Shown here piece after piece: positions 1 through 42,384 of a DNA stretch of 64,000 bases; position 1 is the stretch's first letter, and the number at the start of each line of letters is the position of its first letter. A model generated the notes under the pieces. It ran no database searches and was not told where the DNA came from. It saw nothing but the letters and a program-made list of their open reading frames with translations. The stretch is taken from NCBI RefSeq assembly GCF_056712565.1, contig NZ_CM160072.1. One strand, 5' to 3'. A program made the translations under genes and the position numbers.

Positions 1-91
1 ATTGACATCCTCACTGCCCTAAAGGATGGGGATTTCGGTAATGCTGCCAACTTACTGATTTAGTGTATGATGGTGATTTTAAGGTGCTTGC

Positions 92-367
92 GTGGCTTCC
101 ATTTCCATCAGATGTCCTTCCTGCTCCGCTACTGAAGGCGTGGTGCGTAACGGCAAAAGCACTGCCGGACATCAGCGCTATCTCTGCTCTCATTGCCGTA
201 AAACATGGCAACTACAGTTCACTTACACCGCCTCTCAGCCCGGTACGCACCAGAAAATCATTGATATGGCCATGAATGGCGTCGGATGTCGCGCCAGTGC
301 ACGCATTATGGGCGTTGGCCTCAACACGGTTTTACGTCACTTAAAAAACTCAGGCCGTAGTCGGTAA
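92..367 (+). CDS. insA: IS1 InsA (transposition repressor / N-terminal part of InsAB' transposase)
   Basis: 91-aa ORF with zinc-finger CPSCS...CSHC and helix-turn-helix typical of InsA. Confidence 0.9.
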
Positions 368-393
368 CCTCGCGCATACAACCGGGCAGTGAT

Positions 394-789
394 GTGATTG
401 TCTGCGCTGAAATGGACGAACAGTGGGGCTACGTCGGTGCTAAATCACGTCAGCGCTGGCTGTTTTACGCGTATGACAGGATACGGAGGACGGTTGTGGC
501 GCACGTCTTCGGTGAACGCACTCTGGCCACACTGGAGCGTCTTCTGAGCCTGCTGTCGGCCTTTGAGGTCGTGGTATAGATGACGGATGGCTGGCCGCTG
601 TATGAATCACGCCTGAAGGGAAAGCTGCACGTTATCAGCAAGCGTTACACTCAGCGCATTGAGCGACATAATCTGAATCTGAGACAACATCTGGCAAGGC
701 TGGGACGGAAGTTACTGTCGTTCTCAAAATCGGTGGAGTTGCATGACAAGGTCATCGGGCATTATCTGAACATAAAACACTATCAGTAA
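394..789 (+). pseudogene. insB: IS1 insB with in-frame TAG stop (577-579) splitting it into two ORFs (394-579, 580-789)
   Basis: ORFs ...SAFEVVV* and [36 protein letters not shown]... are contiguous in frame; recalled canonical InsB reads ...DVVIWMTDGW, so TGG to TAG is implied. Confidence 0.7.
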
Positions 790-876
790 GTTGGAGTCAT
801 TACCTCCTCCCGAACTCAAAGCTATCATACAGATAATTACTGGTTAACCCTATATAGGGCATTTTAAAGTGTTGTG

Positions 877-1250
877 ATCTTACCCAGCAATAGTGGACAC
901 GCGGCTAAGTGAGTAAACTCTCAGTCAGAGGTGACTCACAAGACAAAACAGTTTCAACCAGTAAAAAAACGTAAACACCATTCGCATGAATTTCGTAGTT
1001 AAGATCTGAAGCTTGCAGAATGCATCGGTGTTACTGCCGGAGTCCGTGAACTTAGTCTGCATTAATCACCACAGCTTTACATCTGTCGCAGTAAACAGCA
1101 AAATCAGCAAACTTACTTAATTATATCGAGTGCGATTACAATCGCTGGCGATGGTACAGTTGGTGTGGCGGTCTCAGTCCGGAACAATTTGAAAATCAGA
1201 ATCTCACTTAAAACGGCATCCATTTTACAAAAGATGGCCGTCTGTGTATT
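877..1250 (+). mobile_element. Degenerate IS3-family left-end remnant (terminal repeat TGATCTTACCCAGCAATAGTGGACACGCGGCTAAGTGAG plus decayed orfA 5' region)
   Basis: Terminal IR-like sequence at 877-915 followed by sequence resembling a decayed IS3 orfA start (no intact ATG or ORF); right limit approximate. Confidence 0.5.
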
Positions 1251-1549
1251 TATAATGAATACCTTCTACATGTTTAGAGTGCATAATCCACGACAAGGCG
1301 ATATCCTAAAAATTAGCTAGCAGGCAACTTTGATGGCATAGATAATGTTTTTAGTAAAAAAGAGTTGACTGAATATAATACAGCCTCTTCCTACATAAGA
1401 AGGAATGTGCTCACAAAAAAAACCATTAGTCTGCTTCCTGTTCTTACAATAATCAGTATTATGTATTTTATTTATATAGCAAAATATGCTTGTTACACCT
1501 GTCATAATTAGGCATGGTAAAATTATTGACTGAACCCTGGGGGAGAAAG

Positions 1550-1807
1550 ATGCACAGTGATTATTATAATATGGTTTTTGGTGAAAAATTGGCCAATATT
1601 TTATATGAAGCTAACTCTCAATTTTTTTACGAGAGAAATGTCATAGAAGAGGCAGTCAACGCTTTATTCTGTGAGCGTGAAATAATAAACAACAAGAACA
1701 TAATAAAGAAGCTGATGTTCTTTTTGTCAGATGTTAATCACACCAAGAAAGATGTTGTTCAGAGCGCACTTAATATTATCATTGACATTACATCAGGTGA
1801 TATTTGA
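1550..1807 (+). CDS. Small helical regulator of the YmgB/AriR-like family (hypothetical)
   Basis: ORF 1514-1807 with a GGGGGAG RBS-like sequence before the internal ATG at 1550; C-terminal NNKNII...SDV...K.DVV...L.IIIDITSGD resembles AriR/YmgB-type proteins; AT-rich, horizontally acquired context. Confidence 0.4.
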   Translation: MHSDYYNMVFGEKLANILYEANSQFFYERNVIEEAVNALFCEREIINNKNIIKKLMFFLSDVNHTKKDVVQSALNIIIDITSGDI

Positions 1808-2065
1808 GATTTTACATAAAAGATAATCTCTCAAGGAGTCTTATCTGAAAACGAAATATATAGTCCCTCTCGTTTTGTAATATCGATTGGCTTTGTTGAA
1901 TCGGTTACGTACCCCGGAGCCGGTCATATTTTCAGGTAATACACACGCTTTCAGACATTTCGGCTTTCGTCATTTTGGTATCATGGGCATAGCTTCTGCT
2001 ACCTGACCATCATAATCACGCAGCTTCAGTGAAGCAGTGACCACCTGTTTAACCCGGTGTATCGT

Positions 2066-2285
2066 TATGATCTTATCCAGCAATAATGGACACGCGGCTA
2101 AGTGAACCGCCCCGGGTTTCCTGGAGAGTGTTTTATCTGTGAACTCAGGCTGCCAGATCATCGTTTCCGATGGAAGCATAATAAGCTTTTTCTGCTTCTG
2201 CCGGTGGGATATGGCCCTGCCTTTCCAGCAATCGTCGATTGTTATACCAGTCCACCCACGTGAGTGTGGTCAGCTCATCATACTG
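2066..2285 (-). mobile_element. IS3-family right-end remnant (3' end of transposase orfB plus terminal inverted repeat)
   Basis: Minus-strand translation gives ...CQYDELTTLTWVDWYNNRRLLERQGHIPPAEAEKAYYASIGNDDLAA* followed by terminal repeat (2066-2104); upstream frame closed by stops. Confidence 0.55.
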
Positions 2286-2542: not shown

Positions 2543-3916
2543 ATGGATGCTAACAATATGAAAAGAAAAATTATTCCCGTGCTAATCGGTTGTACGCTCT
2601 CTTTCTCTGCCCTGGCGGCACAACCTACGGCTGAGCGCTATGTCGTCAGTTTTCCAGAAGGCACGCACGTGAACTACGCCGGCGCATTTGCCAGTGCATT
2701 CCCGAACGGCCTTCCGGTTGGGATAGGTTCTGGCCTGCTGTTCACCGGTAAACAGGGCGATGCCCTGACATTCGCAACCATTACCGATCGCGGTCCGAAC
2801 GCGGATTCACCGAAAGAGGGGAAAAACGAAACTAAAATTTTCGTTACGCCAGATTTCGCGCCGCTGCTGATGACGATTCGTGTACAAAACGGCAAAGCGG
2901 AGGCCATCGATCCCCGTCCTCTGCATGACGATAAAGGCGCGATCAACGGTCTGCCGCTGGCAAGCGACGTGATTGGCTCCACCAATGAAGTGGCCTTCAG
3001 CGACACGTTACATAGACTGAAGGGGGATAATCGCGGGCTGGATACGGAAGGGATCACTCCGGATGGTAAAGGAGGTTACTGGCTGTGCGATGAGTATGGC
3101 CCGTTCCTGATTAACATCGACAGTAAAGGGAAAATCCTGGCAATCCACGGTCCGCAGGCGGCGGAAGGGGAAAAAGCGATTGCGGGCGGTTTGCCAAATA
3201 TCCTCAAATGGCGTCAGGCGAACCGCGGCTTTGAAGGCCTCACCCGTATGCCGGACGGGCGTATTATTGTCGCCGTGCAAAGTACGCTGGATATCGACGC
3301 TAAGAGCAAGAAAAAGGCGCTGTTTACGCGTCTGGTGAGCTTCGATCCGGCAAGCGGAAAAACCGCGATGTACGGTTATCCTATCGACAGCGCGGCCTAC
3401 AGCAAAAACAGCGACGCTAAAATCGGAGACATCGTGGCGCTCGATAACCAGCACATCCTGCTGATCGAACAGGGAAGAGATAAAAACAACAGAATGCGTA
3501 ACCTGATTTACGAGGTCGATCTCAATAAGGCGAGCGACCTGTCAGGCTTCGACAAGCCGGGTGAGTATCCGGAGTTTGATGATGAGAAAACCCTGTCACA
3601 GCGCGGCATTACCCTTGCGCAGAAAACGCAGGTTGTTGATCTGCGCTCCTTGGGCTGGCAGCAGGAGAAGGCTGAAGGGTTGGCGCTGATCGACAGCAAA
3701 ACGCTGGCGGTGGCGAACGATAACGACTTTGGCGTGAAGGTGGCGATGCAACATCCGGTCGAGGGCAAGACATTCAAGGATTATCGGGTGAACGCGGAAG
3801 GAAAGCTGACGCTTGACGACAAGCAGGTTGAAACGACCCTCAGAGTGAAGCCACTGGAGAAACCGGAGTCTGACAGTGAACTGTGGATTGTGACGCTGCC
3901 GGAAGCGTTGAAATAA
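2543..3916 (+). CDS. Exported phytase-like / esterase-like beta-propeller family protein (signal peptide; alternative start at 2558)
   Basis: 457-aa ORF; N-terminal MKRKIIPVLIGCTLSFSALAA signal peptide; motifs DRGPN, GFEGLTRMPDG, NDNDFG reminiscent of phytase-like esterase domain proteins. Confidence 0.6.
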   Translation: MDANNMKRKIIPVLIGCTLSFSALAAQPTAERYVVSFPEGTHVNYAGAFASAFPNGLPVGIGSGLLFTGKQGDALTFATITDRGPNADSPKEGKNETKIFVTPDFAPLLMTIRVQNGKAEAIDPRPLHDDKGAINGLPLASDVIGSTNEVAFSDTLHRLKGDNRGLDTEGITPDGKGGYWLCDEYGPFLINIDSKGKILAIHGPQAAEGEKAIAGGLPNILKWRQANRGFEGLTRMPDGRIIVAVQSTLDIDAKSKKKALFTRLVSFDPASGKTAMYGYPIDSAAYSKNSDAKIGDIVALDNQHILLIEQGRDKNNRMRNLIYEVDLNKASDLSGFDKPGEYPEFDDEKTLSQRGITLAQKTQVVDLRSLGWQQEKAEGLALIDSKTLAVANDNDFGVKVAMQHPVEGKTFKDYRVNAEGKLTLDDKQVETTLRVKPLEKPESDSELWIVTLPEALK

Positions 3917-4119: not shown

Positions 4120-5215
4120 AAGCGTACAGCGAGGGCCGTATTGACGGGGATGTGTTATTCAGCTGGCAGTGCTATGCGCCACGGAAGCAGTTCGCTGACC
4201 CGGTTGACCGGCCAGTCTGCTATGACGCCAGGCACATGGCGAAGGTAGCTTTCTGGATCCACGTCATTCAGTTTGCACGTCCCGATCAGGCTGTACAGTA
4301 GCGCTCCCCGCTCACCACCATGGCCAGAGCCGAAGAACAGGGTCTTCATCTTTTCACGCAACCAGCTTTCCAGGGATTTCAACAGCGGTTTCGTTTTTCG
4401 CTGACGTTCAGCAAGCCGCTGCTCTGCCGGCATTCCCCTTATATCCGCCTCTATGGCGTACAACTGACCGATCTGCTCTAGGGCTTCTTCCGTCAGTGCT
4501 GACGGGATGCGGACGTGCACATCGTGGATCTTTCGGCGGGCATGAGCCCAGCAGGCAGCTTCCGTTATCCCACCATTGCGATACAGCTCGTTGAACCCGG
4601 CGTACGCATCCGCTTGCAGCACACCGCTGAAGCAAGCAAGATGAGTCTGCGGATGGATGCCTTTTCTGTCCGGGCTGTAAGCGAACCACACTGCAGGTGC
4701 CAACGCTGACCCGGCATTGCGGTCATCACGAACATACGCCCACAACCGCCCGGTCTTCGTCTTCTTATTACCCGGCAGCAGTACCTGGACCGGGGTATCA
4801 TCGGCATGGAGTTTGCCGTCAGTCATGACATAGCCATGAAGCGCCTCTTCCAGCGGAGACAGCAGCCGGCAGCATGCATCCACCCAGCCCGACAGCAGTG
4901 AACGGCTCAGCTCCACACCTTGCCGGCCGTATATTTCTGACTGGCAATACAGCGGGGTGTGCTCTGCATACTTCGAGGTCAGCACGCGGGCCAGCAGCCC
5001 CGGTCCGGCGATACCCCGCTCGATGGGCCGCGAAGGTGCAGGTGCCTGCACGATGGCATCGCACTGAGTACAGGCATGTTTTTCCCGTACCGTCCGGATA
5101 ACCCGGAAGGCGCTACGCATCAACTCCAGCTGTTCGGCGGTATCAGTCTCCTCCTCGCCAGGAACGGGCTGACTCACTGTAACCACCTCCGAAAACAACT
5201 CTGCAATTATCAGAA
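4120..5215 (-). mobile_element. Truncated IS66-family element (right end with terminal GTAAGCG... repeat; 5' part missing)
   Basis: Contains C-terminal two-thirds of an IS66 TnpC-like transposase and an IS66-like terminal sequence near 4120-4150; no tnpA/tnpB upstream. Confidence 0.6.
4155..5198 (-). pseudogene. IS66-family transposase TnpC, N-terminally truncated (347 aa of ~520)
   Basis: ORF retains CxxC zinc-finger and DDE core region typical of IS66 TnpC but lacks the N-terminal leucine-zipper region and tnpA/tnpB partners. Confidence 0.7.
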
Positions 5216-37897: not shown

Positions 37898-38914
37898 ATG
37901 GGATATTTACATATTGATGGTAGAGGCATGAAGCCAAATGGAGGGAGCCGTCATAACCCTCTTGAAGCTGAAACAATAGCAGCATGGCTGGTGGCACATA
38001 AGGATGATATAGAGCGCCATTACGGGGAACCACTGTACAAAGTTGTTGGTGTTGTGACGCCATTTTCGGCGCAGGTTAATGCTATCAAAATGTCATTGCG
38101 TAAGCTGGAAATTAATGGCAAAGACGAGCAGGGTTTACTGACAGTGGGGACTGTGCACTCCTTGCAGGGGGCGGAAAGGGCGATTGTTCTCTTTTCTCCT
38201 GTCTACTCAAAACATGAAGATGGCAGGTTTCTTGATAGCAACAGCACTATCCTCAATGTTGCTGTCTCACGCGCTAAAGATAGTTTTCTGGTATTTGGCG
38301 ATATGGACCTTATCGAGATGCAGCCCGCATTTTCGCCGCGAGGGTTATTGGCAAAATATCTCTTTTCTTCAGATAATAATGCGTTGCAATTTGAGTTTCA
38401 GAAACGACAGGATTTAATTTCCGCACATACACAAATTTCAACGCTGCATGGTGTGGAGCAGCATGATGAATTTTTGAACAAGACTCTTGCCGGAGCTCAA
38501 AAGAAAATAACGATTATTTCCCCTTGGTTATCCTGGCAAAAAGTGGAGCAAACGGGATTTCTGGCATCAATGGCTTTGGCCCGTTCCCGGGGCATTGATA
38601 TTACCGTGGTGACGGATAAAAACTGCAATATAGCGCATGTCGATGATGATAAGCGTCAGGAGAAACAACATCTGCTGAATGATGCTGTTGAAAAGCTCAA
38701 TAAGATGGGTATCGCTACGAAATTGGTTAATCGTGTTCACAGCAAAATTGTGATTGAGGATGAAGAACTGCTGTGTGTCGGATCTTTTAACTGGTTCAGT
38801 GCTACACGGGAAGATAAGTATCAACGATACGATACGTCTTTGGTGTACCGTGGTGAAGGCGTAAAAAATGAAATAAAGGCAATATATGGTAGTCTGGATC
38901 AACGTCAGCTTTAA
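37898..38914 (+). CDS. yjhR: Helicase-remnant protein (C-terminal SF1 helicase domain plus PLD-like domain)
   Basis: 338-aa ORF; the preceding ORF 37722-37931 encodes an adjoining helicase segment in another frame, so this is a frameshifted fragment of a larger gene. Confidence 0.65.
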
Positions 38915-39496
38915 ATGTGATGAGCCGTTCATGATACAGGAGTAGTAAAGGGCATATTTTACCAATGTTAAGGCGACTTTCCGTTTTATTGTGAGTCGCC
39001 TTTCCTGATTATAAATCTTATTGTTTACCTAATCATTTTCCTTTGCATAATGCGCCTGGGATTAATGGCGGGTGCTTTTAGGAATGAAAGAAAATGCAAG
39101 CAATAATATAATAATGGCCTAATTTCTTTGAACATCATTAAGCATATCATCATCGTCTATTTGCCAGAATCCGTCGACTTATAATCGCCAGAACGGCATA
39201 TCAGGACGGTGCTGCGAACGCTGTGGCCCAAAACGTTCCAGTAAACTGTGTAGATGTTCGTAGATTTCCGAGCCATAATCGAAAAGGCGCGGATGTCTAT
39301 TAAGGCATCCGGCTAATCTGTAAGCAATAACAACGGTTTATGCGGTGCGCGTTTTTCACCCTTGTGCCAGATTATTATATTGGCAATTGCCTGCTGTTCG
39401 AGCCCGCAAGTGAAGAGATATTACCTTGATCTCATTTGTTTTTTGTTGTCTACTCTGAGAACGAACAAGGACATCCCCCATGAATAAACTCCCCGC

Positions 39497-40477
39497 TCAC
39501 CTTTCGCGCCAAAACTGCAAAATTGCTTCTACAAATCTGTCAGAAATAATCCCCCGACGGGCTGCAGTGCTGAAATGACTGCTTCGCAGTGCCGTCGTCC
39601 AGTTCTCCGGTGACCGGTACGCTGAACCGTAATATCCCGTGCTTAAATCGTCCGGGTCTTCATCAGGCGCGTTCGTCAGTCCTCTTTCACCTTGTTGCTG
39701 GAAGTCGACGAAAATAATATTGGCTAAAACATTATTTTGATAATTGCCATAAATAGCTTCATACGAATGCGGGAAATTTTCTTTCCAGTACCAGGTGGTA
39801 TCGCCGCAAAACCACGGCGCGTCAGTAATATTATTAAGCTGAGAATGGTATTGTTTTAGATCCCTACGAAAGGCTTCAACCATATGATTAAAGTGTTGAG
39901 GGTGTGACGCGTAGTCACTGGTCATTAAGTCAAATTCGCCTTGCATCCAGCATGCGCCGAGGAATTTGTTCTGCGGATTTTTTGCCAGTGCGGCTCGCGT
40001 TCTGCTGACTAAATCCTGGTACAGCGGAGTATCCGTTCCCCAACGACAAGCATCATGGCTGGCTCCGTGCCGTTCTGAATATGTCCCTTCGCTGCCCGCG
40101 GTAAAAGCCGATCCGCCACGGCAACACGGAACGATAAGAATCCCTGCATTATCAGGAATGAAGGGCAGTAATTTCCGTGCAATATGCAGTGCCTGGCCAA
40201 CGGTGCCGTACTGTGTTTGATGATTCGTTGCCAGAGGATGGTGATAACCCTGCATATCCTGAACATCGTGTGGGCAGTGAGTCAGTGGAATAATGTCGTT
40301 AAAGTGACATGGCGGGCCTCCGGGATGCGTATGCGCAAATCTCGCTAATTGTTTAATTCTGGGATGAGGCGCATCTTCCCTGTCCGGTAATGGCAGTCCT
40401 TCGCCATACGCCATGGCATTAGACTGACCAGCAACGGTAAGAACATAGTAATAATCGGGCGATATTATTGCGTTCAT
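39497..40477 (-). CDS. nanS: 9-O-acetyl-N-acetylneuraminate esterase
   Basis: Start MNAIISPDYYYVLTVAGQSNAMAYGEG...; SGNH-type esterase. Confidence 0.85.
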   Translation of the reverse strand: MNAIISPDYYYVLTVAGQSNAMAYGEGLPLPDREDAPHPRIKQLARFAHTHPGGPPCHFNDIIPLTHCPHDVQDMQGYHHPLATNHQTQYGTVGQALHIARKLLPFIPDNAGILIVPCCRGGSAFTAGSEGTYSERHGASHDACRWGTDTPLYQDLVSRTRAALAKNPQNKFLGACWMQGEFDLMTSDYASHPQHFNHMVEAFRRDLKQYHSQLNNITDAPWFCGDTTWYWKENFPHSYEAIYGNYQNNVLANIIFVDFQQQGERGLTNAPDEDPDDLSTGYYGSAYRSPENWTTALRSSHFSTAARRGIISDRFVEAILQFWRER

Positions 40478-40541
40478 ATAAATTTCGCGTAATTGAAATG
40501 ACAAATTGATAGCAGGGCCCCTTTACCGGGGCCCTGAAGCG

Positions 40542-41648
40542 TTAGTTTTGTACTGTGACTTTATTATCCTTCACAGTGATCAAAACTGAATCCGTCACCG
40601 CTTTGCCGCCTGCAGTTTCACCGCCAATAATCAATAGACTATTATTCCAGGGCAATGATACTCCGTAGGCCCGACCTTGCGATAATTCACCCGATTTATC
40701 CCATTTCCCGTTATGCCAAAGATGAATATCAGTGCTATATGATTTTTTCAGGCCTTCATGCGCATAGTTCTTACCGTTCTGGTAATTTTCTCGTGAACCT
40801 TTGAATCCGGCCCCTCCGGCAAATATAAGAGAATCATTGCTTATCCCCGCAAAACCGCCAGCTACGCCATCTGGTGATGAGACGGGAGCAAGCTTATTCC
40901 ATTTTAAATTATTACCGGTGAAATCAAGTTCAAATACGGCATCCGTTCGCAATCCTGGTTTGGCTTCGCCATTAATAAGCCAGGTTTTATCACCTTTATT
41001 CACAACCGCCGCACCAGCCGTTCCGTACCAGGGCGATTCGCCAGCGTAACTCCATTGCTGTGTTGAGGGATCAAAAGACAACAGAAACTTATTGAAGAAA
41101 TAATCTTCTGCTTTTTTGTCAAAATAGTGAGCATTGATTTTATCTATAGCGGTTGAATCTTTTCCAGCCTCGTTGAGATCTTCAAAATAGCCATTGAAGA
41201 TATTCTGGTTAACACCACCAGTAACATAAGCCTTGCCGTTGTGTACAAAAGTCACATGGCCCGCCATGCCCATCGGCGCGTGCGACATCAATTTAACCCA
41301 ACTATTGGTTTTGGGGTTGTATTTGTGTACGTCATTAAATACCTGAGTCAAGCCCTCGCTGTTTTTGCCAATGCCGCCAAACACATACAGATTGCCATCA
41401 ATAAATGCAGAGGTTGCTTGATCTCTTGGTCCGCCAGGGAATGCAGCTAACGCTGTCCATTTTTTATCTTTGGCCTGTGTATCCAGCTTGTACCATGCCG
41501 TACCTGCGCTACCTAAACCAATGTAGACAGTGTCGTTATCAATTGCTCCGGTACCACTTTTAAATGGCACAGGAGTTTCCGGTAATACAGATGCGTTTGC
41601 GGCAAATGAAGCCATCATGATAGCAAGCGCCGTTATTGTTTTATTCAT
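40542..41648 (-). CDS. nanM: N-acetylneuraminate epimerase (Kelch-repeat mutarotase)
   Basis: Start MNKTITALAIMMASFAANA (signal peptide); Kelch-type beta-propeller repeats. Confidence 0.85.
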   Translation of the reverse strand: MNKTITALAIMMASFAANASVLPETPVPFKSGTGAIDNDTVYIGLGSAGTAWYKLDTQAKDKKWTALAAFPGGPRDQATSAFIDGNLYVFGGIGKNSEGLTQVFNDVHKYNPKTNSWVKLMSHAPMGMAGHVTFVHNGKAYVTGGVNQNIFNGYFEDLNEAGKDSTAIDKINAHYFDKKAEDYFFNKFLLSFDPSTQQWSYAGESPWYGTAGAAVVNKGDKTWLINGEAKPGLRTDAVFELDFTGNNLKWNKLAPVSSPDGVAGGFAGISNDSLIFAGGAGFKGSRENYQNGKNYAHEGLKKSYSTDIHLWHNGKWDKSGELSQGRAYGVSLPWNNSLLIIGGETAGGKAVTDSVLITVKDNKVTVQN

Positions 41649-41667
41649 TGTGACTGTCTCCTGTCTA

Positions 41668-42384
41668 CTACAGTTTAAATGACACACCAATGCGATAACT
41701 GTTTTCCGATAAATTATCTCTGCCGTTGTAAACACCCTGACGGTCAAGGTAGTCATATTCTATGTATGGCGTAATATCGGGCGTCATATGGTATTGTAGA
41801 ACAAATGCATTTTCCGTCGCCCATTTCTTATGGTTTGCATAGCGATAATCGTTCTGTTTGCTGTATAGCGTCGTTTGCCATGCGAAGGTGAAATCACTAT
41901 TAATATGGTAAGTGACATATCCATCCCAACGATGAACGTTATCACGAGACATATCACCGGATAAGTCTTGTTGTCGGTAAGCTTTCCAGTCGTAACGATA
42001 GCGAATGCCAAAATTAAGATCTTTTGTCGCGTCCCAGGACAGTTTTACGTAGGGTCCGTAGCGTGTGCCGTTGCTGCTAAAATGCGTTAACATTCCCGGG
42101 CGCACCGTCCATTGATCATCAAGTTTAATCGCGTAATTAACTTCAACCTGAACATCATTGAGTGCGGCATTTTCCTTTTTATTATCATGAATGGTATTCC
42201 AGGTATTACTTTCCATGCTTGCCCACCATCCATTTTGCCATCCCTCACTGACTTTGAGTCGAGTCTCATAGGCGTGGCTTCCACTACGATATCCACCACG
42301 TACGTCCAGTGTCGCAGCCTGAGAAATTAATGGGGACGAAAAGCACAGTAATAATACGCCAGAAAGTATTTTAGCCTTTTTCAT
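41668..42384 (-). CDS. nanC: KdgM-family outer-membrane N-acetylneuraminic acid channel
   Basis: Start MKKAKILSGVLLLCFSSPLISQA; beta-barrel porin. Confidence 0.85.
   Translation of the reverse strand: MKKAKILSGVLLLCFSSPLISQAATLDVRGGYRSGSHAYETRLKVSEGWQNGWWASMESNTWNTIHDNKKENAALNDVQVEVNYAIKLDDQWTVRPGMLTHFSSNGTRYGPYVKLSWDATKDLNFGIRYRYDWKAYRQQDLSGDMSRDNVHRWDGYVTYHINSDFTFAWQTTLYSKQNDYRYANHKKWATENAFVLQYHMTPDITPYIEYDYLDRQGVYNGRDNLSENSYRIGVSFKL

Follow-up and report, generated by a model that had tools for sequence, protein, structure and literature searches.

An orphan YmgB/AriR-family gene on a probable mobile cassette of Escherichia coli: a candidate stand-alone connector to the Rcs system

The analysed window comprises 64,000 nucleotides of contig NZ_CM160072.1 (RefSeq assembly GCF_056712565.1). 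Close to its left end a plus-strand open reading frame runs from an ATG at 1550 to a TGA at 1805-1807 (85 codons), exactly as given by an earlier interpretation made from the letters alone, in the following called the sequence-only reading. The product of 1550-1807 is a small (85 amino acids, 9.9 kDa), acidic (pI 5.0) and, by prediction, all-helical protein. The gene and its surroundings are composed of the following features:

37-804, plus strand: IS1, 768 bp, full-length, with an internal stop in the transposase; the nearest complete IS element
871-1250, plus strand: internally deleted IS3 copy, right boundary (~1250) approximate, consisting of a 42-nt terminal repeat (871-912), a degenerate orfA (~910-1114) and the C-terminus of orfB (1113-1211)
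1299-1549, plus strand: conserved non-coding 5' region, presumed promoter, operator or leader, with a perfect TATAAT at 1374-1379
1381-1422, plus strand: best-conserved upstream motif, CAGCCTCTTCCTACATAAGAAGGAATGTGCTCACAAAAAAAA, with the palindrome TTCCT-N8-AGGAA at 1388-1405
1514-1549, plus strand: in-frame 5' extension used in many RefSeq records, probably untranslated
1539-1545, plus strand: Shine-Dalgarno-like GGGGGAG, 4 nt 5' of ATG 1550 (GGGGGA in the 87%-identical allele)
1550-1807, plus strand, stop included: coding sequence of the 85-aa YmgB/AriR-family protein, identical to RefSeq WP_000555341.1
1808-1872, plus strand: conserved 3' tail of the cassette, in which an intrinsic terminator was not recognised
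1932-2062, minus strand: transposase fragment of the IS5/IS1182 family, from the PGAP annotation of identical genomes
2064-2276, minus strand: end of a second IS3-family element, with a 42-nt terminal sequence (2064-2105) and the transposase C-terminus (2145-2276)

The frame of the gene remains open further upstream, back to an ATG at 1514, from which a 97-aa form starts (WP_000239862.1). No Shine-Dalgarno sequence was found 5' of this codon. In an 87%-identical allele of IncF and ColV plasmids the called product has 85 aa and begins with MHSDYY, and here the loss of 1 nt between the two ATGs puts ATG 1514 out of frame. P0061 and P0065, the two distant relatives described below, as well as AriR and the 87% alleles, all start at the alignment column of ATG 1550. 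Judged from these alignments and from the placement of the GGGGGAG, which the sequence-only reading had recognised as a putative ribosome-binding site, ATG 1550 is the better-supported start compared to the 97-aa RefSeq start at 1514. The choice made by the sequence-only reading was thus favoured, and the correction from 97 to 85 aa represents a small, concrete improvement of the annotation.

The gene had been placed between IS3 remnants. IS3 ends are indeed present on both sides, their 42-nt terminal sequences (871-912 versus 2064-2105) being 93% identical, and PGAP annotates fragments of an “IS3 family transposase” at 1113-1211 and 2145-2276. Nevertheless, the description was incomplete, as the IS1 at 37-804 and the IS5 fragment at 1932-2062 were not mentioned. 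The IS1 is inserted where K-12 has its IS1F, adjoining fecI-ykiE. In K-12, IS1F abuts yjhU directly, and tblastn with the window protein gave no match in the IS1F-yjhU region. BL21 carries the gene, there followed by IS1A.

Five genetic contexts of the gene were compared, namely the fec-adjacent chromosomal site, BL21, plasmid pCP131-IncFIB, IncFII and ColV plasmids, and pSA53IncF. Only the stretch corresponding to 1299-1872 of the window was common to all of them, which defines a cassette of ~575 bp consisting of the gene together with its own upstream DNA of about 250 bp. In the IncFII and ColV plasmid context Tn3 fragments lie on either side of the gene. The GC content amounts to 31.4% for the gene and 32.1% for the cassette (1299-1872) compared to 49.3% for the whole window; sliding values of 0.31-0.33 over 1200-1800 rise to 0.50-0.56 on either side. 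The AT-rich setting proposed before was therefore evident, and horizontal acquisition, proposed along with it, agrees with the patchy distribution, the absence from K-12, the occurrence of the same cassette on IncF plasmids of three genera, the low GC content and the bordering IS elements. We regard as very probable an orphan gene on a mobile cassette, one that IS elements have moved between an accessory region near fec in the E. coli chromosome and IncF plasmids.

The gene was detected in 1,696 of 5,426 complete E. coli genomes (31%), nearly always as a single copy with at least 99% identity, while a 901-bp stretch around it was present in 2,230 of the 5,426. Annotation was inspected in 40 rows sampled from the ranking: all 39 full-length matches were annotated as an intact coding sequence, and the fortieth was an unannotated partial match of 28%. 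In PLSDB the gene was found on 49 plasmids from Escherichia, Salmonella and Shigella. Using tblastn with the window protein, neither a match in the phage collection nor a second copy of the gene within the 64-kb window was found. A different plasmid form is represented by cluster P0028 (620 sequences), where codons 1-6 and the entire upstream DNA have given way to a fragment of a Tn3-family transposase. As this form has lost the 5' end of the gene, the gene is dispensable there. At loci L018-L020 the P0028-type form constitutes a chimeric 96-aa ORF, which is still named a YmgB/AriR family protein in RefSeq. On pCP131-IncFIB (L003, 4046-6818) evgA-like and IS1-truncated evgS-like genes lie 1 kb 5' of the AriR-like gene. 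They were considered as functional partners and rejected, since an IS1 lies in between and the pairing is absent from the other contexts examined; the arrangement was judged to have been brought about by IS1 and not to reflect a conserved partnership.

The 5' region of the cassette contains the most strongly conserved non-coding element of the locus. The 42-nt motif at 1381-1422 lies ~160 nt 5' of the gene, is unique within the window (0 chance matches expected), and is more conserved than the coding sequence across clades with 46% protein identity. Its distance to the gene is ~130 nt in the 87% allele, which has a 28-nt deletion, and ~173 nt in P0061. The motif also recurs at loci L004 and L006-L014, ~130-175 nt 5' of YmgB-family genes. 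A fit to a MarA box, judged by eye on both strands against a degenerate marbox consensus, was poor, and this assignment was dropped. No BluR half-sites (GTACA/TGTAC) were present in 1200-1900, compared to three in the K-12 ycgZ promoter. In 1100-2200, neither a plus-strand promoter with sigma-70 consensus 5' of the gene nor an intrinsic terminator 3' of it was detected, and the 3' region folded no better than shuffled sequences (z = 0.05). An Rfam search of 800-2600 at a permissive threshold returned no family, with one sub-threshold ctRNA match (25 versus 45 bits). RNAalifold analysis of the 5' region, based on four sequences from three lineages and with a covariation term of -1.5, suggested an anti-Shine-Dalgarno pairing but was uninformative. 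Two small open reading frames in this region, 1365-1511 on the plus strand (48 aa, hydrophobic) and 1317-1505 on the minus strand (62 aa), were not accepted as genes, since indels of 1, 2 and 28 nt between the alleles break both frames.

The family assignment rests on several comparisons. The HMM search proposed by the sequence-only reading yielded a match to Pfam PF10798 (YmgB) of 27.3 bits (E 3.4e-6), extending over residues 28-84 and profile positions 2-59 of 59 and exceeding the gathering cut-off of 22.3 bits by a narrow margin. No other Pfam match was obtained at E <=1 except for a sub-threshold mTOR_dom match of 12 bits, the clade of the window protein has no domain entry in the precomputed Pfam tables, and the NCBIfam scan gave no relevant model or equivalog match. 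With phmmer the protein matched 2OXL, the sequence crystallised for the YmgB structure, at E 1.2e-3. A BLASTP comparison with AriR of K-12 showed 30% identity, colinear from end to end (residues 6-85 versus 8-88). At 85 aa the single-domain protein fits the size class of the family of about 85-90 aa. An AlphaFold2 model built on a family alignment of 32 sequences (pLDDT 79) consists of four helices, and the predicted helical bundle matches the YmgB structure 2OXL with a superposition of 1.1 Å. All positions invariant in 32 of 32 sequences (L14, E28, A35, N48, K49, I51, D68, L74 and T81) are kept in the window protein, and so is the N-N-K-N-I-I turn (NNKNII motif) of this alignment. In view of the Pfam score, the 2OXL match, the identity with AriR and the predicted fold, the resemblance to the YmgB/AriR family seen by the sequence-only reading holds, and membership in this family is almost certain. 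Orthology to AriR is not established, given the 30% identity and the lack of an NCBIfam equivalog match. The broader term “connector family” had to be narrowed. An AriR-like paralogue is present, but a resemblance to YmgA and YcgZ, the other small and likewise helical proteins of the K-12 operon acting in the same pathway as AriR, is not: no similarity was detectable to YmgA, and the weak alignment with YcgZ (18%) was non-significant. The term should be restricted to the YmgB/AriR branch.

A phmmer search of 1.84 billion representatives revealed no more than two true distant relatives (E <=1e-3), P0061 and P0065; the clade of the window protein is therefore narrow, and no donor lineage could be named from this search. 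P0061 (86 aa), found on IncF plasmids of E. coli, for instance CP076275, is the closest distinct clade with 46% identity. Like the window gene it is plasmid-borne, is embedded in homologous flanking DNA (homology of the window to this locus begins at about 1294) and carries the TTCCT-N8-AGGAA motif upstream at a comparable distance. In contrast to the window protein it has kept the family arginine discussed below (DIIRSTLE), and its neighbours are different, comprising a polysaccharide deacetylase, an SMR pump, a VirK/DUF535 gene, a PmrD-like gene and a glycosyltransferase. The P0065, P0071 and P0124 types (84-86 aa) share family and size with the window protein at 33-36% identity, but are encoded at a chromosomal core locus beside BluR and BluF and have the arginine conserved. 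The gene order at these loci is bluF-bluR-ycgX-ymgB-like-pmrD-like-icd, and P0065 is the type with 36% identity. A proximity of YmgB-family genes to genes of the PmrD family, another small two-component connector, was observed in two unrelated contexts, on the plasmid of L012/L014 and on the chromosome of L015, one of them having this gene order.

AriR (YmgB, b1166 of K-12, structure 2OXL) is the reference for the window protein. Both belong to the same Pfam family, have a similar length (85 versus 88 aa), an acidic pI and the NNKNII motif. They are only 30% identical, and among the differences is the replacement of Arg74 of AriR by Gln71. Further differences concern the genetic setting. AriR is encoded in the BluR-repressed ycgZ-ymgA-ariR-ymgC operon at the core bluF-bluR locus, whereas the window gene, without these partners and without a BluR operator, is an orphan whose mobile, AT-rich cassette resides near fec or in IncF plasmids. 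While ariR was found in 4,936 of the 5,426 complete E. coli genomes (91%), the window gene is restricted to 31%. AriR binds the TGS-helical region of SpoT, thereby raising ppGpp, and an R74G exchange abolishes SpoT binding, leaving Rcs activation and dimerisation unaffected (PMC10704370). YmgB binds RcsC's histidine-kinase domain and forms complexes with YmgA and YcgZ (PMC6900184), and its induction of Rcs is independent of RcsF (PMC11451591). The column of Arg74 is occupied by arginine in 29 of 32 family members; the three exceptions, all with glutamine, are the members of the window clade, Gln71 being shared by the window protein and the 87% allele. As Gln71 replaces the SpoT-binding Arg74, the ppGpp-raising activity of AriR is probably absent or weakened here.

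As explanation for the locus as a whole we favour an intact stand-alone gene on a mobile cassette, encoding a connector that would act on the Rcs system in analogy to AriR, with a probability of roughly 0.55. The mechanistic part, a connector function on Rcs, is put forward tentatively, and we consider it somewhat less than an even bet. According to this proposal, the acidic helical-bundle protein would act through protein-protein contact, not by catalysis, and would most likely target RcsC at its cytoplasmic histidine-kinase domain. This contact might switch on the Rcs phosphorelay, by which colanic acid and RprA would be increased and CsgD and curli decreased. The protein may act alone or mixed with AriR, YmgA and YcgZ of the host. 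As a small cytoplasmic connector it would still address Rcs and no longer SpoT. Outside of BluR/BluF control it would have its own regulation, probably via the conserved upstream motif. Under laboratory conditions weak expression or H-NS silencing is probable for such AT-rich foreign DNA, and a low expression level is also probable because 5 of the 11 isoleucine codons of 1550-1807 are the rare ATA. We are aware of the fact that YcgZ and YmgA, the reported partners of AriR, are missing beside the gene, which is a counterpoint to the Rcs model, and that conservation of the RcsC-contact surface is not to be assumed at 30% sequence identity. No report on expression, interactions or a phenotype of the window paralogue was found in the literature that could be searched.

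A more far-reaching version of this proposal seems rather improbable to us. It would see the cassette as a self-contained mobile connector module, which has shed the SpoT interface and kept the Rcs interface, brings its own conserved TTCCT-N8-AGGAA operator and serves IncF plasmids and genomic islands, upon arrival, to reset capsule, curli and biofilm formation of the host, possibly by combining with the AriR, YmgA and YcgZ already present there. If true, mobile elements would spread connectors of two-component systems. Already an active paralogue would mean that small two-component connectors travel on plasmids and islands, and that Rcs activation and SpoT control by AriR are naturally separable by a single surface residue. 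About a third of the sequenced E. coli carry the gene, among them BL21, a strain used in laboratories and for production, so that a real influence on Rcs, capsule or biofilm formation would have some practical relevance.

The most serious competing explanation, which we consider unlikely though clearly ahead of the others, is a hitchhiking relic. The gene would then be intact only through the recent spread of the cassette, a silent or neutral cargo between IS elements with no regulatory role. Selection was assessed by comparing the window coding sequence with that of the 87% allele. The two differ in 15 of 258 nt without any indel, whereas the adjacent non-coding 5' region (1299-1549) diverges by 8.2% with several indels (8% substitutions and 33 gap columns over 250 nt). 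This preservation of the frame argues for coding constraint and thus speaks against a relic. The dN/dS of 0.5-0.76, however, is compatible with one, as with 15 differences this value is indistinguishable from relaxed constraint. Likewise, the near-identity of the chromosomal copies (>=99%) reflects recent spread, not selection, so that their intactness says little on selection. Further points in favour of a relic are the 5'-truncated form, which is very common on plasmids, frameshifted variants in the databases (P0039, P0040 and P0053), the failure to recognise a promoter or terminator, the absence of partner genes and a neighbourhood dominated by IS debris. On the other hand, all family-invariant residues have been kept, the Shine-Dalgarno sequence and the upstream motif are retained across clades whose proteins are only 46% identical, and an intact coding sequence was annotated in every full-length match of the sample. 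We prefer the stand-alone Rcs connector over the relic.

Alternatively, though with a low probability, the protein could be an interfering paralogue, which forms mixed dimers or complexes with AriR, YmgA and YcgZ and thereby damps or re-tunes the BluF/BluR-Ymg-Rcs pathway without being an Rcs activator itself. AriR dimerises (PMC10704370) and binds YmgA and YcgZ (PMC6900184), and it is in its core helices that the window protein is conserved. Since ariR is present in 91% of the genomes, most carriers of the window gene encode both proteins; from the genome counts at least about 1,200 carriers must do so. This scenario is purely inferential, and at 30% identity the formation of heteromers is uncertain.

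Much less probable still is a nucleoid-associated modulator of the Hha/YmoA type, which would bind H-NS or DNA and tune the silencing of the AT-rich mobile DNA by which it is carried. In its original description by Lee and colleagues in 2007, YmgB is reported to resemble Hha in structure, and this likeness, together with the location of the gene on AT-rich plasmid and island DNA, speaks for such a role. Against it, neither the sequence nor the fold of the window protein matched Hha, no Pfam family other than YmgB was hit apart from the sub-threshold mTOR_dom, and a pI of 5.0 is unfavourable for DNA binding. Finally, a reading frame left open by chance in AT-rich spacer DNA can practically be dismissed: frames of such a length, starting with ATG and at least 85 aa long, arose in 2.4% of composition-matched first-order Markov simulations of 1250-1900, but the family HMM score above the curated threshold and the fold match refute this explanation, with the conserved frame and the Shine-Dalgarno sequence also against it. 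The length of the open reading frame is by itself weak evidence; the status as a gene rests on the family match.

Concerning the existing annotation, RefSeq names the product “biofilm development regulator YmgB/AriR family protein”, and in strain HS13-1, the genome of which is 100% identical over positions 1-25000 of the window, an 85-aa coding sequence is annotated at exactly 1550-1807. The family interpretation is right but not new, as the public annotation already carries the same name, and as it stands our result mainly confirms the database. The corrected start, Gln71 at the position of the SpoT-binding arginine, the orphan location on the cassette and the conserved palindrome 5' of the gene add to this in a minor way.

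The whole block from IS1 to yjhU (805-22200) is absent from K-12 and is pieced together from IS debris and a CP4-like island module. The latter encodes an AlpA-like HTH protein, YfjI, a GTPase, Ag43 (~10646-13765), a DUF932 protein, an antirestriction protein, a JAB/RadC protein, a DUF987 protein, and the YeeU antitoxin with a truncated CbtA toxin (about 17179-17277). Between IS3 and IS66 remnants, 2558-3916 encodes an intact protein of 452 aa with the “esterase-like activity of phytase” domain (Pfam PF13449, E 4.6e-43), the N-terminus of which resembles a signal peptide. The IS66 remnant at 4155-5198 (minus strand) is a tnpC truncated at the N-terminus. At the same site strain 7/2 has a complete IS66 (tnpA-tnpB-tnpC), followed by additional genes for zinc-ribbon and inovirus Gp2-family proteins, so that the junction varies between islands that are identical elsewhere. 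A cluster of mtnK, mtnA, a fuculose-phosphate aldolase-like gene and a GRP sugar transporter gene at 18017-22181, absent at this site in K-12, looks like an accessory cluster for methylthioribose salvage or of the DHAP-shunt type. Further downstream (~37900-41800), the annotation of an identical genome shows a frameshifted yjhR helicase gene and a fragment of a restriction endonuclease for phosphorothioated DNA, and a truncated nanS (sialate O-acetylesterase) lies beside intact nanM and nanC.
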